From: an uncultured Bacteroidales bacterium
GTDB lineage: Bacteria; Bacteroidota; Bacteroidia; Bacteroidales; UBA932
DNA length: 64,000 nucleotides
Assembly (NCBI GenBank): GCA_905235995.1
Contig: CAJONI010000052.1
Location: forward strand, 6,107 to 70,106
Direction: 5' to 3'
Part shown: one piece after another, positions 3,541 through 61,399 of the stretch
How the letters are laid out: each line of letters opens with the position of its first letter
Numbering within the stretch: the first letter of the stretch is position 1
Position numbers and translations under genes: made by a program
The notes under the pieces: generated by a model
What the model saw: the letters and a program-made list of their open reading frames with translations, nothing else
Database searches by the model: none
What the model was told of the DNA's origin: nothing

Positions 3541-3587
3541 GATTGAACCTGAACTAAATATTGCTTGCAAATGTATCAAAATTGTTG

Positions 3588-3633: not shown

Positions 3634-6600
3634 ATGAAAACCTACAAACTTTTTACTCTATTACCTAACATTATGATTTCCAAAAAACTGTTTGGATTGC
3701 TCGCCGCACTGGTGTGCCTGGCGATGCCGTTCGGGGCTTCGGCCCAGAACGTGACAGTGCGCGGAACCGTAACCGACGCAGTCGGCCCCGTGGTAGGAGC
3801 CGTAGTGATGTCGGGCGACGCGCATGCTATCACAGACGCTGATGGTGCTTATACCATCACCGTTCCGTCCAATGCGGTCCTCGAAGTCACCTGCATTGGC
3901 TACAAGACCCAGGAGGCCCAGGTTGCCGGACGTGCGGTAATCAACTTCATCCTGGCCGAAGACGTCGAAATGCTGGGCGAGTCAGTCGTCCTGGGTTACG
4001 GCGCCCAGACGAAGAAAAAGGACCTGTCCGCTTCCGTGGGTATCGTTGGTGATCCCGACAAGATTGCCGAACGTCCGGTCCAGTCTATCACCCACATGCT
4101 GCAGGGCCAGATCCCTGGTGTCGTCGTTTCCAACAACGGCGGTAACCCCAACAGCGGCGCCAGCCTGCTCATCCGTGGTCAGGGATCCCGCAACGGTGAC
4201 TCCGTGCTGTGGGTTGTGGACGGTGTCCCCGGTGCTTCCGTCTATTCCATGAATGACATCGAGAGCATAGTCGTCCTCAAGGACGCTGCTTCCGCTGCTA
4301 TCTATGGTGCAACCTCCGGTGCTGGCGGTGTAATCCTGGTAACCACCAAGAAGGCCAACAAGGGTATCCATGTGGAATACGATGTGGTAGCGGGTGTCCG
4401 CGCCGCCTCCAATCTTCCGGAGCCCCTCACCGCCGAGGAAGAGATACTGATGAAGACCATCTCCCACCAGAACGCCGGTCTTTCCCTGCCTACCGGTTGG
4501 GATACCACCATCAACCCCTGGGTGGGTGTGCAGCGCACCAACTGGATGGATGAAGTGTTCCGTACAGCTCCTTATCAGCGCCACTCCGTCACCCTCAACT
4601 ACGGTACGGACGTGTTCAAGAGCCGTCTCACCTTCTCCTATCAGGACAACCAGGGTGTTCTGAACAACACGTACAAAAAGAATCTGGCCGTCCGTTTCAA
4701 CGGTGAATACCAGATGAACAAGTGGCTCAAGATTACGGAGGTATTATCCTACGACGACGGTTTCGGCCGTTCCGTGGACGATAGCTCGGCCCACACCGGT
4801 GTCCTGCTCTCCGCACTTTGGATGCCGCCGTCCGCCGAGGCTTATGCATCGGCCGGACCTTACGCCGGCTCTTTTGGCGGTACTACCACCGAGGATCCTG
4901 AATACATTGCCAAGTACGGTTCCAACTTCGCCGATATCCACGGTGACGTGGTGAACCCTCTCCGTATGCTGTATGCCAGCACCCAGTGGGGCCACAACGT
5001 GGATTTCTGGAATACCACCGGTATTCACATCACGCCGGTCAAGGGCCTCAAGATATCCAGCGTCTTCTCCATGGATATCAACAATGCCAACTCCAAGAGC
5101 TTCAGCCCCGCCCGTCGCGAGGTAGGTAAGCCCGATATCTCCAATGGCCTCAGCCTGAGTGCTTCCCGCGCTTTCAAGTGGCGCAGTGAAAGCACCGTCA
5201 CCTATGACCGTACCTTTGGTAAGCACACGGTGGGAGCCCTGGCCGCTTTCACCATGGACCACTGGGAGAGGCGGGGTTTTGGCGGCAGTGCTTCCGGATT
5301 TGAGAACGAAGACGAAAACTATCAGTTCCTCAAGTTCTCCACCACCACCAACTTCAACAGCGACTATTTCGACGGCCCGGACCGCAACATCGCTTTCGTG
5401 GCCCGTGCTTCCTACAGCTACGACGACCGTTACTTCGTCACTGCCTCCTGGCGTCGTGACTATGCCGGCCGTCTGCCCAACGACCACAACTCCGGTGACT
5501 TCCCGGCCGTGACCGGTGCCTGGAAGGCTTCCAGCGAACCGTTCTTCCCCAAGAACGACGTCGTGAACCTCCTCAAGGTCCGTGCTTCCTGGGGTCGTGT
5601 AGGTAACCTGGGCTCCATCGGCATGAACTATAAGTCCAACACCCTGAGCAGCAGCAACTGGAACGAGGCCCCCAACTACGGTATCGATAAAGGCACCGTC
5701 TTCGGAACCTTCTGGTATGCAGCCAACTCCATCAATAATGCGCTGACCTGGGAAACTTCCGAACAGTTCGACGCCGGTATCGATATGGATATGTTCACCG
5801 ACCGCCTGTCCATGTCGGTGGACTACTATAACAAGCGTACCTTCAACCTCATCCAGGACCAGACCATGGGTTGGCCTGTGACCATCGGCCGTAACCCCAT
5901 GAAGGTGAACCAGGGTGAGATCAACAACTCCGGTGTGGAAATCCTGGTGAACTGGAAAGACAGGGTCGGCAAGGATTTCAACTACTATGTGAGCGCTAAC
6001 TTCGCCTACAACAAGAACGTTGTGGTCTCTACCGGTTTGCTGGACGACCAGGGCAATCCTGGCAAGTGGACCGGTGGCGGTGACTGGGGTGGCGTGCCGT
6101 GGCTCTATCAGAGCGAACCCGGCCAGCCGCTGAACTCCTTCTTCGTGATCAAGACCGCCGGCATCTTCCAGAGCGTCGAGGATATCTATGACCACCAGAA
6201 GGACGGCAAGCTCATCCAGCCCAACGCCCAGCCCGGTGACCTCAAGTTCATTGACTTCAACAACGATGGAAAGATCGATACCAACGACCGTCAGTATGTA
6301 GGCTCCGCCATGCCTAAGCAGACCTTCGCATTCAGCGGCGGTTTCAACTGGAAAGGCTTCTATGCAGACATCATGTTCCAGGGCGTAGCCGGCAACAAGA
6401 TTGCATATGTGGGTAAGTCCCGTATCCTCTCCGACGTGGAAGGCAACTTCTCCCGTGCCAAGGAAATCTTCAATTCCTGGAGCCCCGAGAACCCGCACAC
6501 CTATCTGCCTCGCCTTTCCACCAACGACCCGAACGGCAACTACTCCCAGCCCTCCGATTTCTATATCGAGGATGGCAGTTATCTGCGTCTGAAGAACTTC

Positions 6601-6804
6601 ACCATCGGTTACGACTTTACGAGCCTCCTCCAGAAGCTCCCTCATTTCGCGCAGCGCGCCAGCACTTGCCGCGTTTACTTCTCCGGTGAGAATCTCCTTA
6701 CTTTCACCAAGTACTCCGGCATGGATCCGGAAGTGGGCGGCTACGATACTATCAAGTATCCTGTTTCCCGTATTTTCACCATTGGTGTGAAGATCAACTA
6801 TTAA
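3634..6804 (+). CDS. SusC/RagA-family TonB-dependent outer-membrane transporter
   Basis: There is a signal peptide; an alternative start MISKKLFGLL lies at 3673. A CarboxypepD_reg-like domain follows it directly (NVTVRGTVTDAVGPVVGAVVM), with no STN domain. Also present are a TonB-box/plug region (ESVVLGYGAQTKKKDLSASVG...LLIRGQGS), a long beta-barrel and a C-terminal aromatic residue (...IGVKINY). The gene is immediately followed by a SusD-like gene. Confidence 0.93.
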   Translation: MKTYKLFTLLPNIMISKKLFGLLAALVCLAMPFGASAQNVTVRGTVTDAVGPVVGAVVMSGDAHAITDADGAYTITVPSNAVLEVTCIGYKTQEAQVAGRAVINFILAEDVEMLGESVVLGYGAQTKKKDLSASVGIVGDPDKIAERPVQSITHMLQGQIPGVVVSNNGGNPNSGASLLIRGQGSRNGDSVLWVVDGVPGASVYSMNDIESIVVLKDAASAAIYGATSGAGGVILVTTKKANKGIHVEYDVVAGVRAASNLPEPLTAEEEILMKTISHQNAGLSLPTGWDTTINPWVGVQRTNWMDEVFRTAPYQRHSVTLNYGTDVFKSRLTFSYQDNQGVLNNTYKKNLAVRFNGEYQMNKWLKITEVLSYDDGFGRSVDDSSAHTGVLLSALWMPPSAEAYASAGPYAGSFGGTTTEDPEYIAKYGSNFADIHGDVVNPLRMLYASTQWGHNVDFWNTTGIHITPVKGLKISSVFSMDINNANSKSFSPARREVGKPDISNGLSLSASRAFKWRSESTVTYDRTFGKHTVGALAAFTMDHWERRGFGGSASGFENEDENYQFLKFSTTTNFNSDYFDGPDRNIAFVARASYSYDDRYFVTASWRRDYAGRLPNDHNSGDFPAVTGAWKASSEPFFPKNDVVNLLKVRASWGRVGNLGSIGMNYKSNTLSSSNWNEAPNYGIDKGTVFGTFWYAANSINNALTWETSEQFDAGIDMDMFTDRLSMSVDYYNKRTFNLIQDQTMGWPVTIGRNPMKVNQGEINNSGVEILVNWKDRVGKDFNYYVSANFAYNKNVVVSTGLLDDQGNPGKWTGGGDWGGVPWLYQSEPGQPLNSFFVIKTAGIFQSVEDIYDHQKDGKLIQPNAQPGDLKFIDFNNDGKIDTNDRQYVGSAMPKQTFAFSGGFNWKGFYADIMFQGVAGNKIAYVGKSRILSDVEGNFSRAKEIFNSWSPENPHTYLPRLSTNDPNGNYSQPSDFYIEDGSYLRLKNFTIGYDFTSLLQKLPHFAQRASTCRVYFSGENLLTFTKYSGMDPEVGGYDTIKYPVSRIFTIGVKINY

Positions 6805-6817
6805 TCTGACTGTGCAT

Positions 6818-8479
6818 ATGAAAAAGTATATTTCTATTGCTATTGCAGCCCTTTGCGCTCTCAGCTTCTCTTCCTGCAGCAATTTCCTGGATTATACATC
6901 CAAGGGTTTCTATACTGAGGATACGTTCTTCCAGAATGACCAGCAGGCCATGGATGCTGTCAAGAGCATCTATGCCCGTCTTCCTCAGGAAAGCCTGATG
7001 GGCCGCGAACTCTATTGGGAGCAGGCGGTTGCCTGTGACATCGTGTGGGGTAAGACCCGTTCCTTCAATACTATCGCCACCTACGAATACACCGGTGACG
7101 AGAGTGTGATTGTGGGAGTTTTCAAGAACTGCTACAATGAAGGCATGAACCGTTGCAACTGGATCATCAACAGCCTTCTCAAGAAGCAGGAGACTACTCC
7201 TCTTACCGCTATTGAAACCCGCAGTCTGGGTGAAGCATACTTTATGCGCGCCCATTACCACTTCATCATCGCCTACCGTTATGGTACCGACAAGCTGGGC
7301 GTTCCCTTCGTGGCCTACGAAGATGTGGAAGGTGGTTACAACAATGAGATTCCTCCGCAGTTGCCCACCGTCATGGACAACTATGCGTATATCGTGTCCG
7401 ACCTCAAGAAAGCCGAAGAGCTTCTGCCGCGTGTAGTTGACTACAGTGACGACGACAAGGGTCGTGCATGCAAGGAAAGCGCCGCTGCCATGATGGCCAA
7501 GGCTTATGCCTACTGGGCCACCTGGGACAAGAGTCAGTGGCCTAACGTGATCACCTGTGTGGACAGGCTGGAGAACAGCTACGGCCGTGCCCTGCACCCG
7601 GTGTTTACCGACCTCTTCGCCCCCGATGTGAGCAAGTTCTTCACCAATGAGTACTGCTGGGGTTATCCTTCCCGTGGCGGTACAGCCAAGGGCGGCTCTG
7701 TCGAGTTCCCGGGCATCTCCCTGGAAGACAAGGGATGGGGTAAGTACAACGGCTGGGGCCAGTTCAAGCCCACCCTGGATATCTACGAAGAAATGGCGAA
7801 GGACAATGTTGACGGTGTGAAGAACGAACGTCTTGCCGCAACCATCCTGGAATATGGCGACGAGTTCGAATTCTTCGGAGAGACCCGCAGGTTCTGGTCG
7901 GCTGTGAACGTGGAAGCCGGTTTCCAGATCTACAAGTTCCTGCAGCCGTTCGCTCCGGCCGACTGTCAGGAAAGAGGCTGGGTCCTGAACAACCCCGACT
8001 GGCCTTGCACCCTCATCAACTGGCCCATCGTCCGCTTCGCCGACTGCTTGCTCCTCCGCGCCGAGGCCAATCTCGTTGCCGGTAACGGAGCCGCTGCCGC
8101 TGCGGACATCAACAAGATCCGCCTGCGTTCCCATCTGCAGCCCCTGCCCGGCGCTATCGCCACCTGGACCGACCTCTATCACGAGCGTCGCTGCGAACTG
8201 GCCTTCGAGATGGCCAACGACCACGCCTATGACTGCAAGCGCTGGGCCTATTCCGGTGCACCCGAGATCAAGGCTCTTGCAGAAAAAGAACTGAATTCCC
8301 GTCCCCGCATCCGTAAATACGAAGACCGTATGGATCCCGATTCTCCTTGGGTAGAGGCTCTCTATGAGGACTATGTGAACAAGCTGCCTTGGAATGTCAA
8401 GTACATGACCTTCCCTTATCCTTCCGAACAGATCAACAAGTCTGCCGGCATGCTTCAGAACCCTCCGTCCTGGCAGTAA
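6818..8479 (+). CDS. SusD/RagB-family nutrient-binding outer-membrane lipoprotein
   Basis: The ATG is at 6818; the ORF-track start at 6812 is a GTG. The lipobox is MKKYISIAIAALCALSFSSCSN. SusD-type TPR-like helices are present (GEAYFMRAHYHFIIAYRYG, ADCLLLRAEANLVAG, LYHERRCELAFEM). It lies 13 nt after the susC stop. Confidence 0.9.
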   Translation: MKKYISIAIAALCALSFSSCSNFLDYTSKGFYTEDTFFQNDQQAMDAVKSIYARLPQESLMGRELYWEQAVACDIVWGKTRSFNTIATYEYTGDESVIVGVFKNCYNEGMNRCNWIINSLLKKQETTPLTAIETRSLGEAYFMRAHYHFIIAYRYGTDKLGVPFVAYEDVEGGYNNEIPPQLPTVMDNYAYIVSDLKKAEELLPRVVDYSDDDKGRACKESAAAMMAKAYAYWATWDKSQWPNVITCVDRLENSYGRALHPVFTDLFAPDVSKFFTNEYCWGYPSRGGTAKGGSVEFPGISLEDKGWGKYNGWGQFKPTLDIYEEMAKDNVDGVKNERLAATILEYGDEFEFFGETRRFWSAVNVEAGFQIYKFLQPFAPADCQERGWVLNNPDWPCTLINWPIVRFADCLLLRAEANLVAGNGAAAAADINKIRLRSHLQPLPGAIATWTDLYHERRCELAFEMANDHAYDCKRWAYSGAPEIKALAEKELNSRPRIRKYEDRMDPDSPWVEALYEDYVNKLPWNVKYMTFPYPSEQINKSAGMLQNPPSWQ

Positions 8480-15834: not shown

Positions 15835-18642
15835 ATGAAAAAATCTCTGCTTCTCCTCGCAATTTTATGCCTGGCTGCCCTGAGCGGATGCCAGAAGAGC
15901 ACGCCCGTCAGCCCCATAGATCAAGTACATGTTTTCAATGGCACCGGCTTCCACGGCCATACCTATCCCGGCGCCACGACCCCCTATGGCCTCGTCCAGC
16001 TCAGCCCCGATACCCGGACCTACGGCTGGGACGGAAGCTCCGGCTACCACTACAGCGACAGCGCCATCCTGGGCTTCAGCCATACCCACCTCTCCGGTAC
16101 CGGCTGCGCCGACCTCGGCGACTTCCTCGTGACCCCCGGACTGGGCACAGTCGAGCCACTGCAATTCAGCCATGACGACGAATACGCCCGTCCCGGCTAC
16201 TATAAGGTGGATTTCCCCGCCGGCATCACAGCCGAACTCACCGCCGCACCCCATACCGGCGTCCACCGCTATACCTTCAGCGGTGAAGGCCCCCGCAGGA
16301 TACTTGTCGACGCCCTCCACGGCATAGGCGACGAAACCCACGCCACCCAGGCCAGCCTCCAGGCAGTGGCCCACGACGAGATCAAGGGCCACCGCAGGGT
16401 GGACGGATGGATCAGGGACAGGGACATCTACCTCTCAGCGAAATTCTCAGTGCCCTTCCTCGACGCCGTCCAGCCAGTTCCGGGCAAACTCCTGCTCAGC
16501 TTCGCCGACGACGTGAGAGAAATCACCATCTACGCCGGCATCTCCTATACCGGAGCGGAGGCCGCCAAGGGCAACCGCGTCGTGGAGACCCGGGGCCGCA
16601 GCTTCGACGAAGTCTGCGCCATCACCACCGACGACTGGAGCAGCTCCCTCGGCAGCATTGTCGTGGAAGGCGGCCCCACGGAGCAGTTCTACACCTGCTT
16701 CTACCATACCCTCGTGTGCCCCAACAACATAGCCGACACAGGCCAGCCCCCGTACTATTCCACGCTCTCCCTTTGGGACACTTTCCGCAGCTGGAACCCA
16801 CTCCAGACCATCATCAATCCCGGCCTCGTGGGCGACATGGCCTCCAGCATGCTCAAGATGTACCACGACTGGGGCGAACTTCCCATCTGGCCGCTGGCAT
16901 ATGGCGAGACAGGATGCATGATAGGATACCACAGCGTCAGCGTACTGGCCGACGCCTGGCTCCGCGGCATACGCAGCTTCGACGGCAAGGATGCCCTGAC
17001 GGCGATGGTCGCGTCGTCGAACAAGAACAAGCAGCCCGCTTCCGAACTCTATGTGAAATATGGCTATATACCCGCCGACCGCATGGCCCAGTCGGTGTCG
17101 CAGACCCTCGAGTTCGCCTATGACGACTGGTGCATAGCCCGCATGGCAGAGAGCCTGGGCCTCAATGATATAGCAGCGGAATACGACCGCCGGGCCCAGA
17201 GCTGGCGCAACGTGTTCGATCCCGCCACCGGCTTCATGCGCGGCCACCGCAGCGACGGCTCATGGATGACTCCATTCGACCCGATAGGCAGTACACGCGA
17301 ATATACCGAAGCCATCCCCTGGCAGTCCCGCTTCTTTGTGCCGCACGACCCTGCAGGACACGCCGAAATGATGGGCGGCCGCGACGCCATGCTCGCCGCC
17401 CTCGACTCGCTCTTCACTTTCGAAGACCGCAGTGCCGAGGTGAGGGTGTCCGACATCACCGGTCTCAAGGGCCAGTATGCCCACGGCAATGAGCCCAGCC
17501 ACCATATGGCCTGGCTCTACAACTGGTACGGCAAGCCCTCGATGAGCCAGAAGGTGGTCCGCGAACTGCTCGGTGAGATGTACGACATCACTCCTGAAGG
17601 CGTGTGCGGCAACGAGGACTGCGGCCAGATGAGCGCCTGGTATGTGCTCGCGTCGCTGGGCATCTATCCCGCATGCCCGGGGACGGGAGAATATGTCCTG
17701 GCCGCGCCTTTGTTCAGGAAAGCCGCCATAGCCCTCGGCAACGGCAACGCCCTTACGATCACGGCAGACCACCCGGGCCGCCCGTATGTCTCCGACGTGA
17801 AGCTCAACGGCAGGACGCTGCCCTGCAACTATATCACCTACGACGAGATAATGGCCGGGGGCAAGCTTGAGTTCTCCCTCTCCTCGAAGCCGGTGAAATC
17901 GCGTGAGGACCTGCCCGCCCCGTATTCGATGAGCACGCATTCCATGGTCTCGACTCCCGCGGTCCTGGGCGACATCGACCTCTTCCGCGACAGGACCGAA
18001 ATCACGCTGGCTACCCGCACCGAAGGCGCCGCCATCCACTATACCCTCGACGGCAGCGAACCCACGCAGCAGAGCCCGGTTTACACCGGACCCTTCACCC
18101 TCGAAGAGACCACCCGCATCCGCGCCCGCGCCTGGAAGGAAGGCTGCGAAGCTTCGCCGGAGGCCTCCATCCCCGTGGTCAAGGCCTTCTTCCAGCCCGC
18201 CGACGATGTGACGGGGCTGGGACACGGCTGCAGCTATACATATCACCGGGGTGTCTTCACATGTACTGCAGACGTGCTGGCGAGCCCGGTCGTGTCCCGA
18301 GGCACCTTGCCAATGCCCTCGATCGACCAGGCCCCGGATGAAGACCACTTCGGCTACGTGTTCACGGGCTGGATAGACGTTCCGGAAGACGGCATCTGGA
18401 GCTTCGCCCTCATGAGCGACGACGGCTCCGTGCTCGACATCGACGGGGTGAGGGTGGTCGACAACGACGGTTCCCACTCCGCAATCGTGGCGACGGGCCG
18501 CATCCCCCTGCTGAAAGGCCTGCACCCCTACAGGCTAGTCTATCTCGAAGACTATGAGGGCAATTCGCTCCGCTGGGCCTGGAAAGCCGAGGGAGAAGCC
18601 CGCTTCAAACCCATCGACGTTGATTATCTGTATCGCAAATAG
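15835..18642 (+). CDS. GH92 alpha-mannosidase with a C-terminal CHB_HEX_C-like domain and a PA14 domain; copy a
   Basis: Lipobox LAALSGCQ. GH92 signatures are FHGHTYPGATTPYGLVQLSPDT, GQYAHGNEPSHHMAWLYNW and CGNEDCGQMSAWYVL. These are followed by AAIHYTLDGSEPTQQSPVYTGPF...RARAWKEG (chitobiase/hexosaminidase C-like) and a PA14-like end (about 18226-18639; HFGYVFTGWIDVPEDGIWSFALMSDDGSVLDIDG). Confidence 0.9.
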   Translation: MKKSLLLLAILCLAALSGCQKSTPVSPIDQVHVFNGTGFHGHTYPGATTPYGLVQLSPDTRTYGWDGSSGYHYSDSAILGFSHTHLSGTGCADLGDFLVTPGLGTVEPLQFSHDDEYARPGYYKVDFPAGITAELTAAPHTGVHRYTFSGEGPRRILVDALHGIGDETHATQASLQAVAHDEIKGHRRVDGWIRDRDIYLSAKFSVPFLDAVQPVPGKLLLSFADDVREITIYAGISYTGAEAAKGNRVVETRGRSFDEVCAITTDDWSSSLGSIVVEGGPTEQFYTCFYHTLVCPNNIADTGQPPYYSTLSLWDTFRSWNPLQTIINPGLVGDMASSMLKMYHDWGELPIWPLAYGETGCMIGYHSVSVLADAWLRGIRSFDGKDALTAMVASSNKNKQPASELYVKYGYIPADRMAQSVSQTLEFAYDDWCIARMAESLGLNDIAAEYDRRAQSWRNVFDPATGFMRGHRSDGSWMTPFDPIGSTREYTEAIPWQSRFFVPHDPAGHAEMMGGRDAMLAALDSLFTFEDRSAEVRVSDITGLKGQYAHGNEPSHHMAWLYNWYGKPSMSQKVVRELLGEMYDITPEGVCGNEDCGQMSAWYVLASLGIYPACPGTGEYVLAAPLFRKAAIALGNGNALTITADHPGRPYVSDVKLNGRTLPCNYITYDEIMAGGKLEFSLSSKPVKSREDLPAPYSMSTHSMVSTPAVLGDIDLFRDRTEITLATRTEGAAIHYTLDGSEPTQQSPVYTGPFTLEETTRIRARAWKEGCEASPEASIPVVKAFFQPADDVTGLGHGCSYTYHRGVFTCTADVLASPVVSRGTLPMPSIDQAPDEDHFGYVFTGWIDVPEDGIWSFALMSDDGSVLDIDGVRVVDNDGSHSAIVATGRIPLLKGLHPYRLVYLEDYEGNSLRWAWKAEGEARFKPIDVDYLYRK

Positions 18643-23044: not shown

Positions 23045-23056
23045 AGTCTTAAAGAT

Positions 23057-40671: not shown

Positions 40672-40676
40672 GTATC

Positions 40677-43600: not shown

Positions 43601-45059
43601 GGGCGTGATGAGCGCCTACAATGCTGTCGACGGAGTGCCTGCCAGCTGCAACCCGGTCCTGCTCCGGGACATCCTGAAGAAGGAATGGGGCTTCGGCGGC
43701 ATAGTCGTCTCCGACTACGGGGCTGTGGAGATTGTACACAGCAACCATAACCTGGCCCCGAGCGACGAGGACGCGCTGGCCATGTGCCTGGAAAACGGCC
43801 TTGACCTTCAGCTCCATACGACCAGCAGGAGCCTGCTGGGCCTGGTGGAAAGCGGGAAGGTCTCGCGCAAGACGCTCGACGAGGCTGTGAGGCGTGTCCT
43901 GCGTATAAAGTTCGAACTGGGGCTCTTCGACGAGCCCTTCGTGGATCCGGAACAGGCTGCAGTGACCGTTCGTTGCGAAGAGCACCGGCAGCTCGCCTAC
44001 GAGGCGGCGGTCAAGGCCATGACCCTGCTCAAGAACGACGGCATCCTGCCCCTCAGACCCGGCAGCGTGCGCCGTATAGGAGTTTTCGGCCCGGCGGCCG
44101 ATGCCCTGAACCTGGGCGACTACAGCGGTGGCCGCGGCGGCTGGAAGGGAGAGGGAGGAGTGACCCCCTATGAAGGTCTGAAGAAAGCCTTTGCGGGAAG
44201 CTCCACCGAAATACTGCTCAACCGTCCCGGCGACGTCAATATCTTTTTCCCCACCATCACTGAAGAGGAGGGGAGCGACCGCAGCAGCTTCCTGCTGCCT
44301 TCCGCGCATGAGATGCGGTACAGGGAGCAGACTGGCGCGATAATCATAGCCGACCAGCAGCAGACGAACATCAGGATCGACCAGGAGAAGATGGTGCGCG
44401 AGCTTATCGCAAGCGGCAGACCGCTGATAGTGGTGCTGCACAACGGCAGCGTGGTCGACATCTCCGGCTGGGTCGACGGGGCTGCAGCGGTGCTCGAGGC
44501 CTGGTATTCCGGCGAGCAGGGCGGCAGGGCCATCGCCGACATCCTTACCGGGGCCCGCAATCCCGGCGGACGCCTGCCCTTCAGCTGGGCGCGTTCCATA
44601 GGCCAGAATCCCATCTATTATTCCATAAAGCCCAGTGGGAGAGGCTACGGCTATGTGGAGAACGACGGTTCGCCGCTCTATCCCTTCGGATGGGGGCTCA
44701 GCTATACTACATTTGAATACGGCGACCTGCGCATGCCTGAAAGCCTTGGGAAAGGCGAGCCGCTGAAGCTCTGCGTCACGGTGACCAATACCGGTGCCGT
44801 GGAAGGTGACGAAGTGGTGCAGCTCTACGCTCACGACGAACTTGCCTCAGTGGTACGGCCCATGAAGGAACTGGTGGCGTTCAAGCGTGTGACGCTGGCG
44901 CCGGGCGAGAGCCGGGAAGTGGAGATTGAAGTCCCATACATGCGTTTCTCCCTATGGGACAGGAACCTGGTCCGGCGCGTGGAGGAAGGTTGGTTCGAGC
45001 TCTGGCTCGGACGCAATTCCAGCGAGAGGATCCTTAGTGGAAGAGTATATGTAAAATAA
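40677..45059 (+). CDS. Fusion protein: GH78-type alpha-L-rhamnosidase-like N-terminal half and a GH3 beta-glycosidase C-terminal half
   Basis: The ATG is at 40677; the ORF-track start at 40668 is a TTG overlapping the upstream stop. Lipobox LLLPAACT. The N-terminal half has FFDCPDRERGQWWGDIV (GH78 core) and SVNHAWSGGP. From about 42900 the GH3 blocks begin: MSLEEKVAQI, ALHGAQWGNATCFPQ, RWGRGQESYGED, KHFVDNYGEGG, GFGGIVVSDYGAV (nucleophile region), VLEAWYSGEQGG and FGWGLSYTTF. Confidence 0.85.
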   Translation: MKRAFYLLFLLLPAACTAPQDKPLAWQLPVDEQISVANTLGCAEASAEPNQWLAFRRDVTLDAAPSSAKARIAVDSKYWLWVNGRSVVFEGGLKKGPNPRDSYFDEVELAPYLQKGENRIALLLWYFGKDGFSHLGSGQPQLWFDCPELGDAPWLCRVHPAYGTAADLPEPNYRLPESSLAFDARQDIEGWQTGPLVGFSPAVVLESTLGTLHSRPIPQWKDFGVKEVAFETRSGAEADTLVARLPRNMQMTPILSVEDSDGGHRIVIETDHAKVGEECLRAEYITAPGTREYESLGWLNGQRIILTVEHGAAVKALKYRETGYDTAPDGSFSCSDPFFNRFWEKGVRTIYVNARDNFFDCPDRERGQWWGDIVTILGESFYTYTPSLYLLIRKGIRELADWQRPDDRLFSPIPGNYGVELPCQMLAAVGRYGFWTYYMNTGDLETIAHVYPAVKRYLATYEKGPDGLMAWHDGDWNWGDWGDNRDMRLLQNIWYVLALQGVSDMADLVGAEGEGSAYWAQMCELREAIDRVAWIGSCYRHPEYRGETDDRVNALAVLAGVASRDKYDAIFEVLKKEEHSSPYMEKYVMEALFAIGQGEYALEREHRRYAFMVDHPDFDTLFENWNVGVDGDWDCGSVNHAWSGGPLAVFPTRMFGVVPTEPGWKVFSVRPDKAIFDKAAISFPTVLGTVSLDYDASARTLAVEVPEGSRAEVDIPWAHTSCTLGPGRHVVKLQDKPEPVAGDFAFRDPGQPVEKRVKDLMKRMSLEEKVAQISAQLLFMDEYYDRRDYTAGHVRNVGHFLPDGGLSNDPASVARAINEDTRRSIEASRWGIPVLQHGEALHGAQWGNATCFPQSIAFGAAFDEDLYYRVGQVVAEELRAVGVRQVYAPVINITRDQRWGRGQESYGEDVLLNSRMGVAYVKALEEGGVVATPKHFVDNYGEGGHDSFASITSWRELREVYLEPFRACIEEGGARGVMSAYNAVDGVPASCNPVLLRDILKKEWGFGGIVVSDYGAVEIVHSNHNLAPSDEDALAMCLENGLDLQLHTTSRSLLGLVESGKVSRKTLDEAVRRVLRIKFELGLFDEPFVDPEQAAVTVRCEEHRQLAYEAAVKAMTLLKNDGILPLRPGSVRRIGVFGPAADALNLGDYSGGRGGWKGEGGVTPYEGLKKAFAGSSTEILLNRPGDVNIFFPTITEEEGSDRSSFLLPSAHEMRYREQTGAIIIADQQQTNIRIDQEKMVRELIASGRPLIVVLHNGSVVDISGWVDGAAAVLEAWYSGEQGGRAIADILTGARNPGGRLPFSWARSIGQNPIYYSIKPSGRGYGYVENDGSPLYPFGWGLSYTTFEYGDLRMPESLGKGEPLKLCVTVTNTGAVEGDEVVQLYAHDELASVVRPMKELVAFKRVTLAPGESREVEIEVPYMRFSLWDRNLVRRVEEGWFELWLGRNSSERILSGRVYVK

Positions 45060-46287: not shown

Positions 46288-49200
46288 ATGAAAAGAAGCC
46301 TGATCATCGCCCTGGCTCTGGCCGCTGCCGCCTGCTCCGGTTCCGAGGGGAACGGCGGTATCCGGAAGCAGATGGAGCTTGTGCCGTTCTCCCAGGTGCG
46401 GATAGACGACTCTTTCTGGTCGCCGAGGCTTGACGCCCACAAGGACGTGACCCTGGCAGTGTGCATCGACCAGATAGAGAACCAGACCGGACGTATCCTG
46501 AATTTCGAACGCGCGGCGCTTGGAAGGGGCAGCCATTCCGGCATCTTTTTCGACGATTCCGACGTCTACAAGGCCCTGGAGGGGATGGCCTATTCCCTGC
46601 AGAACCATCCGGATCCGGCGCTCGAGGCCAAGTGCGACGAATGGATAGACAAGTTCGCCGCGGCGCAGCAGCCCGACGGCTATATCAACACCTACTATAC
46701 ACTGACCGGCCTGGAGAACCGCTGGAAGGACATGGACAGGCACGAGATGTACTGCGCCGGCCACATGATCGAGGCTGCGGTGGCATACTACCAGGCCACC
46801 GGCAAGCGCAAGCTGCTTTATATGGGTATGCGCATGGCCGACCACATGATGAGCGTCTTCGGGCCTGAAGGACGCCACTGGATCCCCGGACATGAAGAGA
46901 TAGAGCTGGCCCTGGTGAAGCTCTACGGGGTGACGGGGGAGAAGAAATACCTCGACTTCGCCCATTGGCTGCTGGAGGAGCGCGGACATGGCCATGGCTC
47001 CTATGGCGACGGGCGTACCTGGCCTGCCCACTACTACCAGGACGAGCTGCCGGTGCGGGAGATGACCGACATTTCCGGACATGCAGTGCGTTCCATGTAC
47101 CTGTTCTGCGGCATGGCCGACGTAGCTGCGCTGACCGGTGACCGGGGCTATATGGACGCTCTCGACAGGGTCTGGGACGACGTGGTGCTGAGAAACATGT
47201 ACCTGACGGGCGGGATAGGGCAGACCTCCGCCAACGAGGGCTTCTCTACCGACTATAGCCTGCCCAACCTGAGCGCCTACTGCGAGACCTGCGCTTCCGT
47301 CGGAATGGTGCTATGGAACGCCCGCATGGCCCAGCTGAAAGGCGACGGCCGGTACTTCGACGTGCTGGAGCGCGCCATGTACAACGGCGCGCTGGCCGGT
47401 ATCTCCCTGGCGGGCGACCGCTTCTTCTATGTCAACCCGCTGGAATCCAGAGGTGACCATCACCGCCAGGAATGGTACGGCTGCGCCTGCTGTCCAAGCC
47501 AGATCTGCCGTTTCCTGCCCTCGATAGGCAACTATGTCTACGGAGTGTCTGACGATGCGCTCTGGGTGAACCTCTACATTGGCGGCGAGGCGAAGCTGGA
47601 GCTGAGCCACAAGCCCGTCACAGTCCGTCAGGAGACCGGCTATCCATGGGACGGAACGGTGAAGCTTACCCTCGGGCTCGTAAAACCCGTCAGGTCGGAG
47701 ATACGCCTGCGCATTCCCGACTGGTGCCCCGGTTTCACGGTTTGGGTGAACGGTGATGATTACACACCTGAAGTCGAGAAGGGCTATGCGGTGCTCGAAA
47801 AGCGCTGGAGGGACGGCGACGAGATCGTCCTGCAGCTGGAGATGGATCCGAAGCTGGTCCAGGCCGACCCGCGTGTGCTGGAAGATGCAGGGATGCGCGC
47901 GGTGCAGCGCGGACCGCTGGTGTACTGCATCGAAGAAGCCGACAACAGGGAGGGTTTCGACGCGCTCGCGCTGCGCGAAGATGCGGCGCTTTCCTGCCGC
48001 TTCAACCCCGGGAAACTCGGCGGAATCGTGGAGATTACCGCCGAAGGCGTGGAGAAACCCCTGCATTTCATTCCCTACTATGCCTGGGACAACCGTGAGG
48101 CGGGCAGGATGAAGGTGTGGGTGCCTCTCGAGGAAGCCGACCCCTTCGTGGGGACCGGCGGCGTGGGTCACACCTATCCCGGAGCCACCGCGCCTTTCGG
48201 GCTGGTGCAGCTAAGCCCCGATACCCACAACACCGGATGGGAAGGGGCCTCCGGATACCGGGACGAAGACAGGACCGTCATGGGCTTCTCACACACCCAT
48301 CTCAGCGGTACGGGCGGCTGCGACCTTGGCGACTTCCTCTTTACACCTGCACAGGGTGAAGTGGAGCTCACGGACGCCGGGTACCGGATTCCGCCGCTCG
48401 AATTCTCCAAGGACGGCGAAGCGGCCTACCCCGGCTTCTATGCCGTCAGGTTCAGTGACATCACCGCCGAGATGACGGCCCTTCCCCATACCGGCTGCCA
48501 TCGCTACACCTTCCTCGGGGAAGGGGAGAAGCGCATACTTGTGGACCTCCGCCACAATATCGGCGAAACCCGTCCGGGAGATATCTCCTTCCGTCAGGTT
48601 TCCAACCGGTGCATTGAAGGCGGCAGGCACACTTCAGGCTGGGCCAGGGACAGGGCAATGTACTTCAGCGCCTGGTTCTCAGTTCCTTTCACCTCGTGCG
48701 AGAGCGACGGCCACGACCGCTGGCTGCTCAGCTTCCCTTCCTGGACCCGCGAAGTGACGGTCACCGTGGGCCTGTCGACCCGCGACGCCAGGCATGCGCG
48801 CCGCAACCGTATCGCCGAGGCTCCCGTATGCGATTTCAACTCCGTGCTGGCGAATTCCCGGGCCCTGTGGAAGGAGCAGATGGACAAGGTCAAAGTCGAG
48901 GGGGGAACCGCCGTGCAGCGCAGGATCTTCAGCACTTCCCTCTACCATTGCCTCGTCGCGCCCAACATCCTGAGCGATGTGGGAGTGACGCCTTTCTACT
49001 CCACGCTCTCCCTCTGGGATACCTTCCGTGCCTGGAATCCCCTCCAGACCATAATCAACCCGGAACTGGTCAATGACATGGCAGGCAGCATGCTGGAGAT
49101 GTACGACCGCGACGGCAAGCTGCCCCTCTGGGCGCTTGGCGGGGAGGACGTAGACTGCATGATAGGATACCATTCCGTGTCCGTGATAGCCGACGCGTGG

Positions 49201-50883
49201 CTGCGCGGCATAAGGGGCTTCGACGGGGAGAAGGCTCTCAAGGCGATGGTGGCCTCATCCAATCTCGATCCCGCTTCCGCATGGTACGACGAATACGGCT
49301 ACGTGCCCAGCGACCTTACGCCGGAATCCGTGTCCAAGACCCTGGAGTTCTGCTACGATGACTGGTGCATCGCCCGCATGGCAGAAGCTCTCGGCCACGA
49401 CGACATCGCCGCCCGATACGACGAGCGTGCGCTGCGCTACCGTAATCTCTTCGATCCTGCCTCAGGCTTTTTCCGTGGCAAGGAGTCGATCGGCAACTGG
49501 CGTACCTACTTCACCACCACGGGATCGTCGCGCGACTACACCGAGGCCTGCGCCTGGCAGTACAGGCACTTCGTGCCGCACGACATGGCCGGCTATACTG
49601 CCCTGATGGGCGGCGCCGCCGCCGTCCGCGCCTCGCTCGACTCGCTCTTCAACTACGACTACAGGGATCCGGAAATGAACTACGACGGCAATGTGACGGG
49701 CCTCATGGGCCAGTACGCCCATGGCAACGAGCCCAGCCATGCCAGTGCCTACCTGTATTCCTGTGTGGGCGACCCTTCCTCCACCCAGGCCCGGGTGAGG
49801 CGGATACTCGGTGAGATGTACTCCCTTACCCCGGACGGCCTCTGCGGCAACGAGGATTGCGGCCAGATGAGTGCCTGGTATGTGCTCTCGGCCATGGGCC
49901 TCTATCCCGTCTGCCCCGGCACCGGCGAATTCGTTTTCACTGCCCCCATCTTCAACAGGATCACCCTTGCCCTTCCCGAAGGGAAGCAGCTTGTCATAAG
50001 CGCCGACCATCCTGAGTTCCCCTATGTCAAGGATGTGGTTTTCAATGGGGAACGCATCGAAGCCCAGTTCATTGGCTATGACGCCCTGATGCAGGGCGGC
50101 AAACTCGAATTCGTGCTGTCCGCCAGCCCCTGCCACGAGCGCGACGGCTTCGAGGCCCCTTACTCCCTTACCGACGGCAGTCTTGTGTCCACGCCCATCA
50201 TCAACAGGGATCCCCGCTTCTTCGACAGGCGTTTCGAGGCCCGCCTGCGCAGCCGGACTCCCGGTGCGACCTTGCGTTACACCTTGGATGGCAGCGAGCC
50301 CACGGAAGCATCTCCGCTCTATGAAGGACCTTTCGAGATAAGTGAGGAATGCGTGCTGAAGGCGAGGGCGTTCAAGGAAGGATGCTCCTCCAGCCCCCTG
50401 CTTGGCATGAAGGCCTTTCCTCTCGAGTATCTGCCTCCGCTCTCCGCCACCGGCCTGCAGCATGGCTGCAGCTACAACTATTACGTCGGCAGGTTCAAGT
50501 GGACCGAAGAACTGGATTCCGCACCTGTGGCCGCAAGTGGCGTGATGGCCGTTCCGTCGATTGCCGGAGCGCCTGAAGACGACTACTTCGGCTTCGTGTT
50601 CACCGGTTTCCTGGACGTGCCCGAAGAGGGCGTCTGGGAGTTTGCCGTGACCAGCGACGACGGTGCCGTGCTCGAGATCGACGGAGAGCTTGTGGTCAAC
50701 GGCGACGGCTCCCACGGCAACTACATGGCCACCGGCAACGTGGCGCTCAGCCGCGGACTCCATGTCTTCTGCCTCAAGTATTTCGAAAACTTCGATGGCC
50801 AGAACCTCTCGTGGGCCTGGCGGGCGCCTTCGGCTCCGAAACTCTCACCCATACCTCCTGCCTCGATCTATTACCGACCCTGA
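46288..50883 (+). CDS. Giant fusion protein: GH127 (beta-L-arabinofuranosidase family, DUF1680) + GH92 alpha-mannosidase + CHB_HEX_C-like + PA14
   Basis: Lipobox LAAAACSGS. The GH127 part (to about 48135) has SQVRIDDSFWSPRLD, YKALEGMAYSL, YCAGHMIEAAVAYYQATGK, GHEEIELALVKLY and YCETCASVGMVLWNARM. The GH92 part (from about 48140) has GVGHTYPGATAPFGLVQLSPDT, GQYAHGNEPSHASAYLY and CGNEDCGQMSAWYVL. Then follow ATLRYTLDGSEPTEASPLYEGPF and a PA14 end (about 50464-50880). Confidence 0.88.
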   Translation: MKRSLIIALALAAAACSGSEGNGGIRKQMELVPFSQVRIDDSFWSPRLDAHKDVTLAVCIDQIENQTGRILNFERAALGRGSHSGIFFDDSDVYKALEGMAYSLQNHPDPALEAKCDEWIDKFAAAQQPDGYINTYYTLTGLENRWKDMDRHEMYCAGHMIEAAVAYYQATGKRKLLYMGMRMADHMMSVFGPEGRHWIPGHEEIELALVKLYGVTGEKKYLDFAHWLLEERGHGHGSYGDGRTWPAHYYQDELPVREMTDISGHAVRSMYLFCGMADVAALTGDRGYMDALDRVWDDVVLRNMYLTGGIGQTSANEGFSTDYSLPNLSAYCETCASVGMVLWNARMAQLKGDGRYFDVLERAMYNGALAGISLAGDRFFYVNPLESRGDHHRQEWYGCACCPSQICRFLPSIGNYVYGVSDDALWVNLYIGGEAKLELSHKPVTVRQETGYPWDGTVKLTLGLVKPVRSEIRLRIPDWCPGFTVWVNGDDYTPEVEKGYAVLEKRWRDGDEIVLQLEMDPKLVQADPRVLEDAGMRAVQRGPLVYCIEEADNREGFDALALREDAALSCRFNPGKLGGIVEITAEGVEKPLHFIPYYAWDNREAGRMKVWVPLEEADPFVGTGGVGHTYPGATAPFGLVQLSPDTHNTGWEGASGYRDEDRTVMGFSHTHLSGTGGCDLGDFLFTPAQGEVELTDAGYRIPPLEFSKDGEAAYPGFYAVRFSDITAEMTALPHTGCHRYTFLGEGEKRILVDLRHNIGETRPGDISFRQVSNRCIEGGRHTSGWARDRAMYFSAWFSVPFTSCESDGHDRWLLSFPSWTREVTVTVGLSTRDARHARRNRIAEAPVCDFNSVLANSRALWKEQMDKVKVEGGTAVQRRIFSTSLYHCLVAPNILSDVGVTPFYSTLSLWDTFRAWNPLQTIINPELVNDMAGSMLEMYDRDGKLPLWALGGEDVDCMIGYHSVSVIADAWLRGIRGFDGEKALKAMVASSNLDPASAWYDEYGYVPSDLTPESVSKTLEFCYDDWCIARMAEALGHDDIAARYDERALRYRNLFDPASGFFRGKESIGNWRTYFTTTGSSRDYTEACAWQYRHFVPHDMAGYTALMGGAAAVRASLDSLFNYDYRDPEMNYDGNVTGLMGQYAHGNEPSHASAYLYSCVGDPSSTQARVRRILGEMYSLTPDGLCGNEDCGQMSAWYVLSAMGLYPVCPGTGEFVFTAPIFNRITLALPEGKQLVISADHPEFPYVKDVVFNGERIEAQFIGYDALMQGGKLEFVLSASPCHERDGFEAPYSLTDGSLVSTPIINRDPRFFDRRFEARLRSRTPGATLRYTLDGSEPTEASPLYEGPFEISEECVLKARAFKEGCSSSPLLGMKAFPLEYLPPLSATGLQHGCSYNYYVGRFKWTEELDSAPVAASGVMAVPSIAGAPEDDYFGFVFTGFLDVPEEGVWEFAVTSDDGAVLEIDGELVVNGDGSHGNYMATGNVALSRGLHVFCLKYFENFDGQNLSWAWRAPSAPKLSPIPPASIYYRP

Positions 50884-52448: not shown

Positions 52449-52493
52449 AGTCAGAGCTTTTCCGTTCATTTGAAATATACATCGTACCCCATC

Positions 52494-54749
52494 ATGAACA
52501 GGTTCTCCCATTCTTTTCCCTGCCTCATCCTGCTTGTCACATGTGTCATCCTTGCTGTCGGATGCGGCGGCAGGCATGTGCTCTTCAACGAGGGCAATTC
52601 CGAATACACGATAGTCATAGAACCCGCGGCTCCTGAAACGGAACAGTATGCCGCGGTGGAGCTGCAGACCTGGATAAGGGAAGTCTCCGGAGCGGAGCTT
52701 CCGATAGCCGGCCCCGAGGCCGCCACGGAAGGAAAGCGTCTGGTGGTAGGCTGGCAGCCGCTGACCGCAGAGGCTTTCCCCGATGCCGTAAAGCCGGAAG
52801 ACGGCGACGACTCCTTCACCTGGCGCAGCCATGGCGGCGACATCCATTTCTGGGGAGGCAGCAAGCGCGGGACTCTCTACGCCGTCTATTCCTTCCTTGA
52901 GGAGGCCCTGGGCTGCCGCTGGTATTCCAGCAAGGTGAGCGTAGCCCCGCCGCGCAGCAGCTGGAGCTTCAGGAAACTCGACCACAGCGAGGCCCCAGGC
53001 ATACGCATACGCGACAACTGCGTCCTCGACGTGCGGGTGAATCCAGTGTTCTCGGCGCGTATGCGCAACAATTTCATAAAGGTGCCGGGGCTTGAGCCCG
53101 GAACCACCGTCCCGGGCAGCGCAGAGGGCTACTGGGGCGTGCATGCCCTTGGGTATCATGTCCCCTCCGATGTCCATTTCCACTCCCATCCCGAATACTT
53201 CAGCCTCCGCGACGGAGTCCGTCAGGGCGGATATGCGCAGCCCTGCCTCTCCAATCCCGACGTGCTCGCCATGACCATCGAGAGCGTGAAGAAGGTGATG
53301 CGCGAGCAGCCCGACTACCTCATCTACTCCGTGGAGCAGAATGACAACCAGCTCTTCTGTACCTGCGACGCCTGCCAGGAACTCGCAGAGCGCTACGGCG
53401 GGCAGTCCGGAGTGATGCTCTGGTTCGTCAACCAGGTGGCCGATGCGGTGAAGGACGAGTTCCCCGACAAATACATAGGTACCTTCGCCTACCAGTATAC
53501 GCGCCACGCCCCGAAGGACATAGTCCCGAGAGAGAACGTGGTGGTAAGGCTCTGCAGCATCGAGTGCTGCATGCTTCACGACTATGACGGATGCGAGCAG
53601 AACCTCAGCTTCGCGCAGGACCTCGAGGACTGGGGCGCCATCGCACCGCACCTCTACATCTGGGACTACGTGACCGACTTCGCGCAGTACTGCCTGCCCG
53701 TGGCCAACTGGTGGACGCTGCAGAGCCATATACGCGACTTCCGCGACGCCCATGCAATCGGCATCCTCGAGGAGGGCGACTACCAGACCCCGTCCTGCGA
53801 GCTGAGGGAGATGCGCAGCTGGCTCCTTTCCAAGCTGATGTGGAATCCCGACGCCGATATGGACGAACTCATCCGCGACTTCACCGACGGCTACTACGGT
53901 GCCGCCGGACGCCATGTCCGCGAGTACCTCCGGCTTGAGGACCGCATCCTCCGCCGTGAAGGCATCCACGCCCCATGCTACATCAGCGCAGCCGATACCA
54001 TGTACACCCATGAGTTCATCAGCGAAGGCCGGAAGATCTTCGCCAGGGCGCGCGAGGCGGTGAAAGGCGACGAGGAGCTCCTCAACCGCCTGGAAACCGC
54101 AGAGATGCCGCTGTGCTTCCTGCTTATGGAAAAAGACCCGCCGAAGGGTTTTGAAACGGGCGCCGACGCACTGGTGCGCCGCGTGATAGAGCGTGAAGGC
54201 ATCACCCGCATGACCGAATGGGAGAGAGGCGGCAAGTCCCAGGCAGAGGTGCTTCTGGAAAAATACGAGAACCTGGCCGAAGCGCTGGACAAGGCTCCGC
54301 TGCTGCAGGCTGTCGTAGAGCAGGCTGCCGGCAACGGCGTCTCCTTCACCCGCTACGAAGGTCCTTTCATGAGTACTGCGGAGATGATGGAAAAGGGCAC
54401 AGAGACCGACAGCGGAGCGCTTCCGACGATAAGGATCGAGAAGGAGGAGGAACTGGACCATTTCGGCTACGTGTTCACCACTCTGCTCGAAGCCAGGGAA
54501 GAGGGAATCCATCAGTTCAGCGTCACCTCCGACGACGGCTTCGTGCTCATCCTCGACGGGGAGGAGCTCATCTCGATGGACGGCTCCCACTCTCCTGAAA
54601 TGGCCTGGGCTTTTGCCAATCTGGCAAAGGGACTCCACCGGCTCGAGATCCGCTACTTCGAGGACTGCGAAGGCCAGGTGCTTGACCTTGAATTCCGCAC
54701 TCCGGGCGGCTACATCGGTCCCCTTCCGGAAGACAGACTGTTCAGATGA
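52494..54749 (+). CDS. DUF4838-family (GH20/GH67-N-like) putative glycosidase with a C-terminal PA14 domain
   Basis: The ATG is at 52494; the ORF-track start at 52470 is a TTG. Lipobox ILAVGCGG. The DUF4838 pattern is EYTIVIEPAAPETEQYAAVELQTWIREVSGAELPI, FTWRSHGGDIHFWGGSKRGTLYAVYSFLEE and CLSNPDVLAMTIESVKKVM...QNDNQLFCTCDACQ. The PA14 end is at about 54336-54746. Confidence 0.75.
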   Translation: MNRFSHSFPCLILLVTCVILAVGCGGRHVLFNEGNSEYTIVIEPAAPETEQYAAVELQTWIREVSGAELPIAGPEAATEGKRLVVGWQPLTAEAFPDAVKPEDGDDSFTWRSHGGDIHFWGGSKRGTLYAVYSFLEEALGCRWYSSKVSVAPPRSSWSFRKLDHSEAPGIRIRDNCVLDVRVNPVFSARMRNNFIKVPGLEPGTTVPGSAEGYWGVHALGYHVPSDVHFHSHPEYFSLRDGVRQGGYAQPCLSNPDVLAMTIESVKKVMREQPDYLIYSVEQNDNQLFCTCDACQELAERYGGQSGVMLWFVNQVADAVKDEFPDKYIGTFAYQYTRHAPKDIVPRENVVVRLCSIECCMLHDYDGCEQNLSFAQDLEDWGAIAPHLYIWDYVTDFAQYCLPVANWWTLQSHIRDFRDAHAIGILEEGDYQTPSCELREMRSWLLSKLMWNPDADMDELIRDFTDGYYGAAGRHVREYLRLEDRILRREGIHAPCYISAADTMYTHEFISEGRKIFARAREAVKGDEELLNRLETAEMPLCFLLMEKDPPKGFETGADALVRRVIEREGITRMTEWERGGKSQAEVLLEKYENLAEALDKAPLLQAVVEQAAGNGVSFTRYEGPFMSTAEMMEKGTETDSGALPTIRIEKEEELDHFGYVFTTLLEAREEGIHQFSVTSDDGFVLILDGEELISMDGSHSPEMAWAFANLAKGLHRLEIRYFEDCEGQVLDLEFRTPGGYIGPLPEDRLFR

Positions 54750-58445: not shown

Positions 58446-58454
58446 AATTAAGTT

Positions 58455-59486: not shown

Positions 59487-59492
59487 TTCGCG

Positions 59493-61376: not shown

Positions 61377-61399
61377 CATAAATCACATTTCAAAGCATA

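Follow-up and report, generated by a model that had tools for sequence, protein, structure and literature searches.

Is a gene that joins two unrelated exo-glycosidase families in one reading frame a real gene, and if so, what is the joining for? This question is raised by a 64,000-nucleotide (nt) stretch of contig CAJONI010000052.1 (assembly GCA_905235995.1) from an uncultured Bacteroidales bacterium, hereafter the window, in which a single open reading frame (ORF) at 46288..50883 (+) encodes a glycoside hydrolase family 127 (GH127) module followed directly by a GH92 module. We consider it likely, with good confidence, that this is a genuine, recent, in-frame GH127-GH92 fusion in a single species-level lineage of uncultured Bacteroidales from the ruminant gut, and that its product serves as a bifunctional debranching lipoprotein of a large polysaccharide-utilisation locus (PUL), with co-localisation as the most likely benefit. 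What was observed and computed is that the ORF is continuous, that its domains belong to the stated families, that the catalytic residues are intact, that independent assemblies contain the fusion, that it is under purifying selection and that relatives have the two genes unfused.

Domain organisation of the GH127-GH92 protein

The ORF starts with ATG and runs through 1531 codons with no internal stop. Its product has a colinear series of eight Pfam matches, all well above their gathering scores. The N-terminal half, which a first-pass annotation of the window had called GH127, was assigned all three GH127 domains by the models PF07944, PF20736 and PF20737 (379.2, 83.2 and 88.6 bits against cut-offs of about 24), namely the catalytic domain at aa 36-414, the middle domain (GH127M) at aa 425-519 and the C-terminal domain (GH127C) at aa 521-613. 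This module occupies 46393..48126 (+) and is also supported by alignments to 6EX6, 4QJY and HypBA1 (3WKW) in the Protein Data Bank (PDB). The GH92 module at 48139..50121 (+) is complete, with an N-terminal domain (GH92N) at aa 618-805 (191.9 bits) and a catalytic domain at aa 837-1278 (503.2 bits; models PF17678 and PF07971). It was also recognised by the NCBIfam GH92 model TIGR01180 (559 bits against a cut-off of 249.55) and aligned to the PDB entries for BT3130, NnGH92, Bt3990 and Bt2199. Between the two modules are four residues, L614-E-E-A617 (48127..48138, +), in the peptide ...KVWVPLEEAD/PFVGTGG.... GH127C ends at nt 48126 and GH92N starts at aa 618, close to the boundary of about 48135 given in the first-pass annotation, and neither a linker nor a stop, start codon or second signal peptide occurs at the junction.

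The chitobiase-C-like and PA14 modules that had been noted downstream were both recovered. The CHB_HEX_C_1/Fn3_assoc module at 50242..50394 (+; aa 1319-1369) scored 56.7 bits in Pfam against a cut-off of 22 and is colinear with its counterpart in a GH92 paralog encoded at 15835-18642. The carbohydrate-binding-type PA14 module lies at 50572..50880 (+). Its Pfam core at aa 1429-1478 (PF07691, 37.4 bits against 24) spans only profile positions 41-91, while comparison with the paralog and with three other PA14 tails of the window extends the homology to the C-terminus, and the match to the PA14 domain of PDB 6QDI has an E value of 1.7e-7. At the other end of the intact ORF, the lipobox that had been reported is visible by inspection: the n-region, h-region and Cys of the N-terminus MKRSLIIALALAAAAC(17)SGSEG are arranged as in a lipoprotein signal (MKR, a hydrophobic stretch and AAA-C17), giving a putative lipoprotein-type signal peptide, MKRSLIIALALAAAA-C17, at 46288..46338 (+). 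Inspected as to a surface-export signal, the residues after the lipobox Cys include just one that is acidic (E21). Stand-alone GH127 orthologs have equivalent ...L[FL]SC lipoboxes, and the putative N-terminal signal is the sole export signal in the whole 1531-aa protein.

Conservation of the fusion across assemblies

The 90%-identity cluster of the fusion contains three distinct 1531-aa sequences (the window protein, P0001 and P0268), which are 96-98% identical, differ pairwise at 26-55 residues and are found on 7 contigs. Two loci beyond the window record were read, from two further samples: L001 (European Nucleotide Archive sample ERZ1462739, contig name k81_...) and L159 (sample ERZ14210016, contig name NODE_..._cov_...). 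The styles of the contig names suggest that different assemblers were used. The two loci are flanked by the same genes, with a WbsX-like gene upstream and GH43 followed by DUF4838-PA14 downstream. The three allele ORFs are all 4596 nt long without an indel, and their junction peptide is identical. The pairwise ratio of non-synonymous to synonymous substitution rates (dN and dS) among the three alleles was 0.045-0.15 for the GH127 module and 0.085-0.155 for the GH92 module, with synonymous changes outnumbering non-synonymous changes on both sides of the junction. The GH92 part lacks both a start codon and a signal peptide of its own, and its first in-frame Met falls within the conserved domain.

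Catalytic residues and family assignment

The GH127 half aligns over its full length to the solved structures 6EX6 (E 3e-157) and 4QJY, and in the alignment to 3WKW its residues E317, E333, C335, C401 and C402 correspond to HypBA1 Glu322, Glu338, Cys340, Cys417 and Cys418. In HypBA1, Glu322 is the acid/base, Cys417 is the nucleophile and Glu338, Cys340, Cys417 and Cys418 form a (Cys)3-Glu Zn site (PMC8106489). By alignment, the acid/base of the GH127 module is E317, the nucleophile is C401 and the Zn ligands are E333, C335, C401 and C402. The GH92 half aligns over its full length to 6F8Z (BT3130, E 2e-145) and 7ZGM (NnGH92), and also to 6F91 (BT3965). E1086 falls at the general acid position (Bt3990 Glu533, BT3130 Glu535) and D1190 at the general base position (Bt3990 Asp644, BT3130 Asp637), the residue roles being those given in PMC10167667 and PMC5930347. 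The position matching Bt3990 Asp642 is Asn, as in BT3130/NnGH92-type sequences. With these residues conserved, both modules are predicted to be catalytically competent.

An inactivating D to E substitution in the GH92 motif was considered, since the fused protein reads 'GNEDCGQMS' where the two best references read 'GNDDCGQMS'. This was rejected, because the position corresponds to Bt3990 Glu643, because Bt3990 and Bt2199 natively carry Glu there ('GDEDNGQTS', D-E-D) and because N-E-D is the norm of the clade, found in 115 of the 120 closest GH92 homologs. The base Asp is kept.

Against the NCBIfam equivalog for aceric acid hydrolases (NF049879, BT1003-type), the GH127 half scored 430.4 bits, below the cut-off of 950. 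Its match to PDB 5MQO (labelled 'Non-reducing end beta-L-arabinofuranosidase'), which we take to be BT1003, reached 277 bits, compared to 528 bits for 6EX6, presumably BT3674. The GH127 module therefore looks closest to the beta-L-arabinofuranosidases (BT3674-type, Geobacillus) rather than to the aceric-acid hydrolase. The GH92 module belongs with the BT3130/BT3965 clade.

Fused, adjacent and dispersed orthologs

In a word-indexed search with the whole protein, P0001 was the only full-coverage match, and no other GH127-GH92 protein was found outside the 97% cluster among its 120 closest homologs. A look-up of the window protein itself (P0267) in the contig index gave no match. An index-free phmmer search with aa 100-1290 against 1.84 billion cluster representatives revealed no second GH127-GH92 protein, although fusions under unfused 50%-cluster representatives would escape it; its top matches each cover query positions 1-515 or 515-1190, never both. 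Neither a search with the GH92 half (120 closest homologs) nor a junction-spanning scan of Joint Genome Institute metagenomes gave a further GH127-GH92 fusion. No true fusion was found in a scan of GTDB genomes, where three apparent full-length matches (L002, L004 and L053) were rejected after tblastn with the separate halves resolved each into two adjacent genes, GH92-PA14 and then GH127. This order, found in three species, is opposite to that of the fusion. Both orthologs in these loci carry their own lipoprotein signals, and the stand-alone GH127 proteins end at their stop codons in …WIPLEEK, …WIPLNDE and …WIPLAD.

Elsewhere the two orthologs lie about 30 kb apart within the same PUL (L003+L028 and L006+L032, at least two species), and in L102/L103 a GH127 gene lies about 1.4 kb upstream of a GH92-PA14 gene. 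In L003, L005 and L006, as in the adjacent-gene loci, each ortholog is a gene of its own and carries its own lipoprotein signal. Uncultured Bacteroidales from the rumen or ruminant gut (RUG, RGIG and UBA3289 metagenome-assembled genomes, MAGs) make up all of the closest relatives, and the window, with a GC content of about 0.60, presumably belongs to this group as well. The fusion is confined to one species-level lineage and is evolutionarily recent. A literature search on the two families together gave only census papers on carbohydrate-active enzymes (CAZymes), none of them about a fusion.

Origin of the fusion

The stand-alone paralog at 15835..18642 (+), recognised by Pfam, alignment and trees, is a 935-aa GH92-CHB_HEX_C-PA14 protein with its own lipoprotein signal. 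Its presence had led the first-pass annotation to propose that the fusion arose inside this locus. The fused GH92-CHB_HEX_C-PA14 half aligns end to end with the paralog at 54% identity, the alignment starting at paralog residue 29, just past its signal peptide. In contrast, the fused half is 64-67% identical to orthologs of other species. In trees, the fused GH92 groups with these orthologs and the paralog groups with its own. Because of these identities and trees, the duplication that separates the two is old, no recent copy of the paralog was recruited, and we rejected the paralog, which falls in a different and older clade, as the source. The proposal holds in a broader sense: orthologs of both halves sit in homologous PULs of relatives, so both parent genes belong to this PUL family.

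The sequences on either side of the junction are consistent with a simple origin. The stand-alone GH92 ortholog P0270 reads ...FLLEEAD/PFIG, and GH127 orthologs end in ...PLEEK before the stop. In the fusion, the stop codon of GH127 and the lipoprotein signal peptide of GH92 are lost, and the natural GH127 C-terminus is joined to the first residues of mature GH92. A deletion between the 'LEE'-coding microhomologies of a gene pair in the order GH127 to GH92 would give exactly this junction, and may have been the mechanism.

Related fusions on the GH92-PA14 scaffold

Other lineages have different enzymes fused to orthologs of the GH92-CHB_HEX_C-PA14 half. The N-terminal partner is DUF5060 with an apiosidase-like (GH140-type) module in L002 (8270-12709) and P0272-P0274, of which P0274 represents 212 member sequences; it is CelD_N with a GH9-like module in L004 (7592-12736), and GH31 in P0282. 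Like GH127, these partners join within a few residues of the boundary between D or N and PF[VI]GTGG, and the lipoprotein signal of the partner takes the place of the GH92 signal. A tree built from 127 sequences places the four fusion types together in one sub-clade beside stand-alone sisters, and none of the 28 clusters in the paralog clade has such a fusion. The sub-clade has independently gained the GH140-like, GH9-like and GH31 modules at the same N-terminal boundary.

More distant GH92 proteins have an N-terminal BSP peptidase, NanM/Kelch, GH20, GH28 or EEP phosphatase; one database GH92 protein, P0177, is itself fused to an EEP domain. Among database matches, GH127 is fused elsewhere to GH2, GH3, GH29, GH43, GH76, GH105, GH106, sulfatase, sialidase, FG-GAP and PA14, and its partners represent at least 10 other enzyme families.

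The surrounding polysaccharide-utilisation locus

The locus is defined as a PUL because of its SusC/SusD pair at 3634..8479 (+; Pfam Plug/CarboxypepD_reg and SusD_RagB), and the window is one very large PUL with about 25 enzymes. It contains two GH27 genes with He_PIG domains, two GH106 genes and three GH78-type genes, together with GH3, GH9-like, GH43, GH63-like, WbsX-like, DUF4838-PA14 and BT_3657-like genes, an SGNH esterase and a GFO-type oxidoreductase. Between most genes the gap is only -4 to +36 nt. Six genes of phosphoesterase type (alkaline phosphatase, EEP, two Phosphodiest, Metallophos and MBL) at 18646-20574, 22193-23950 and 58455-62320 suggest a phosphodiester-containing substrate. 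One Phosphodiest protein among them has a LamG domain, the Metallophos protein has a TAT (twin-arginine translocation) signal, and the last is an MBL-fold protein. From the family content, the substrate appears to be a complex, probably phosphorylated glycan with rhamnose, mannose, galactose and/or arabinopyranose, and L-arabinofuranose (L-Araf). Rhamnogalacturonan II (RG-II) was considered in view of GH127, GH106, GH78, GH43 and, in relatives, the GH140-like modules. It was rejected: the window has no PL1, GH28, GH95 or GH138-143, and GH92, GH63-like and six phosphoesterase genes are present.

Four window proteins (1984-3579 (-), 15835-18642, 46288-50883 and 52470-54749) have homologous PA14 tails with the common core DHFG[FY]xF…SDDG…L.[IL]DG. 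Besides the fusion and its paralog, these are a DUF4838 protein and a protein of 531 aa in which no further domain was recognised. It seems that the PA14 tail is a targeting device used throughout the locus.

Two genes upstream of the GH127-GH92 gene, a second fusion at 40668-45059 (+) encodes a 1463-aa protein with a GH78-like six-hairpin module and a complete GH3 with an Fn3-like domain. These are fused in L001, L002 and L020 (UBA3289) and are separate genes in L004, L053 and L022. The second GH106 (alpha-L-rhamnosidase-type) is split into 29625-30371 and 30429-32882 (+) by an in-frame TAG at 30369-30371, between …AISHA and VYDPG…, giving an N-terminal part of 248 aa with a signal peptide and a C-terminal part of 817 aa in the same frame. 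The split may reflect a pseudogene, a nonsense mutation specific to the strain or an error in sequencing. In a strain-level replacement, L001, which is 95-98% identical to the window, is missing the greater part of the 841-aa BT_3657-like gene and the Metallophos gene; window positions 56890-59438 correspond there to 20579-20627, and a 355-aa GH43-related gene occupies the replaced site. Two further conserved PUL proteins, of 579 and 626 aa (8488-10227 and 38132-40012, +), had no Pfam match at E<=1e-4 and have orthologs at 55-80% identity in homologous PULs of related MAGs.

Function of the fusion protein

The fusion would yield a single lipid-anchored protein with three parts, a GH127 exo-glycosidase, a GH92 exo-alpha-mannosidase and a glycan-binding tail of CHB_HEX_C and PA14. 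The GH127 part is predicted to be a cysteine-nucleophile, Zn-dependent exo-glycosidase, and the GH92 part an exo-alpha-mannosidase of a metal-dependent, inverting family. The most fitting description of the protein is a bifunctional, exo-acting debranching enzyme that is lipid-anchored and PA14-targeted and would work among the about 25 PUL enzymes that appear to dismantle a complex heteroglycan. Its advantage is most likely co-localisation, as one anchor, one PA14 tail and a fixed 1:1 stoichiometry would hold both activities on the same polymer, and this benefit need not reflect a specific Araf-Man linkage. What we infer from these results is which sugars the protein acts on, where in the cell it sits, why the fusion is beneficial and that it came about by deletion.

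Several points weigh against this reading. Every related sequence derives from a metagenome assembly or a MAG. The alleles have diverged little since the fusion (dS about 0.1), and purifying selection on both halves is therefore visible over a short time span only. The precursor order GH127 to GH92 was not found in any relative, the known relatives having the opposite order or unlinked genes, which leaves the simple deletion model with no direct precursor. The sugar specificities of both modules are predicted from family membership alone, and the GH127 family also holds an aceric-acid hydrolase. The lipid anchor may place the enzyme on either the surface or the periplasmic side.

The first-pass annotation had suggested sequential action on one branch. 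In this model a beta-L-Araf-type cap sits directly on an alpha-mannosyl residue, and once GH127 has taken the cap off, the tethered GH92 cleaves the exposed mannose. The immediate adjacency of the orthologs in three species lends some weight to a functional link between GH127 and GH92. The close spacing in L102/L103 points the same way, and there is a precedent in BT1020 (GH143 and GH142), whose two modules both target one RG-II side chain. In contrast, fused modules need not share a chain, as BT0996 shows, and to our knowledge no described glycan carries beta-L-Araf on alpha-Man. The partner on the GH92-PA14 orthologs is interchangeable (GH140-like, GH9-like or GH31), the genes are dispersed over about 30 kb in at least two other species, and GH127 fuses widely with other enzymes. 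Because of these three observations, we prefer 'same polymer, same place' over a specific Araf-Man linkage, and consider the capped-mannose model unlikely.

We hold a bolder proposal to be just as doubtful. The recurrent fusions could mean that the GH92-CHB_HEX_C-PA14 lipoprotein is an 'acceptor scaffold', in which selection repeatedly swaps the signal peptide for an upstream debranching enzyme. The products would be lectin-tethered two-enzyme machines for an undescribed, phosphorylated ruminant-gut glycan rich in rhamnose, mannose, arabinose and galactose, and the GH127-GH92 protein would mark a real beta-L-Araf/alpha-Man neighbourhood.

Less probable than either is a neutral or transient fusion, a by-product of tight gene packing and rearrangement that brings no benefit and in which one module is perhaps decaying. 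The short intergenic gaps of most gene pairs would fit this, as would the strong shuffling of PUL gene order between species, the neighbouring GH78-like+GH3 gene that is fused in some species and split in others, and the restriction of the GH127-GH92 fusion to one species-level lineage. Both modules, however, retain their catalytic residues and have a dN/dS of about 0.1. Four independent fusions at the same boundary in one sub-clade, compared to none in the 28 clusters of the paralog clade, suggest that such fusions are tolerated or favoured, not random. Finally, an artefact in which an assembly chimera, or a sequencing error masking a stop or frameshift, merged two genes is very unlikely, to the point of being negligible: although all data come from short-read metagenome assemblies and the combination is otherwise unseen, three distinct alleles on 7 contigs share the 4596-nt ORF length without an indel and an identical junction, two loci have contig names of different styles, dN/dS is low and the GH92 part has no start or signal of its own.

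Significance and comparison with known systems

Co-localisation of two exo-acting enzymes remains the reading that we prefer. Since the GH127-GH92 pairing was found in no other protein of the collections searched, the fusion protein is a ready candidate for asking whether two exo-glycosidases on one PA14 tail improve the breakdown of complex glycans. The fused, adjacent and dispersed versions of the same orthologs in sister species, together with the three other partners, constitute a natural experiment on the formation of multicatalytic CAZymes. The by-product of most interest is that a single GH92-PA14 scaffold has repeatedly captured different upstream enzymes. The finding brings no new enzyme family, mechanism or system type, and the identity of the target glycan of the PUL would be a more valuable result than the fusion itself.

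With at least two catalytic modules of different families in one ORF of a SusC/SusD locus, the gene encodes a multicatalytic PUL-encoded CAZyme (concept in PMC8417218), an established kind of enzyme (PMC8417218, PMC7110780). The GH127-GH92 pairing is new in the collections searched, but the class is already well known. A parallel in design is BT1020 of the Bacteroides thetaiotaomicron RG-II PUL, in which a GH143 DHA-hydrolase and a GH142 beta-L-arabinofuranosidase both act on RG-II chain D (PMC13501991). Like the fusion, BT1020 combines two unrelated exo-glycosidase modules, one of them in its case a beta-L-arabinofuranosidase, in one PUL-encoded polypeptide. Its families are GH143 and GH142 rather than GH127 and GH92, however, and it has no PA14 tail, has a known substrate and shares no sequence kinship with either half. 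BT0996 (GH137 beta-L-arabinofuranosidase and GH2 beta-glucuronidase, acting on RG-II chains B and A) and BT1013 (GH78 and KDO hydrolase) are likewise multicatalytic debranching enzymes of a PUL for a very complex glycan (PMC13501991). They differ in their families and in their substrate, RG-II, whose PL1, GH28, GH95 and GH138-143 families are missing around the fusion.

Taken separately, each half has close structural counterparts. The GH127 proteins of 6EX6, 4QJY and 3WKW align with the whole length of the N-terminal half, with all catalytic and Zn residues conserved, but are stand-alone and about 650 aa long; among GH127 members, BT3674 has been characterised as a beta-L-arabinofuranosidase (PMC10850190). 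The C-terminal half has its best structural matches in the BT3130/BT3965 clade (6F8Z, 6F91) and NnGH92 (7ZGM), down to E 2e-145 and with the general acid and base conserved. This clade is mostly alpha-1,3-specific or multi-specific, BT3965 being alpha-1,4 (PMC5930347). Compared to these proteins, the fusion adds the CHB_HEX_C and PA14 tail, has GH127 instead of a signal peptide and has N-E-D instead of N-D-D. Also close are the GH140-like, GH9-like and GH31 fusions (L002/P0272-P0274, L004 and P0282, respectively), which share with it the orthologous GH92-CHB_HEX_C-PA14 scaffold, the junction and a putative lipoprotein signal supplied by the partner, and differ in having a different N-terminal catalytic partner in each.

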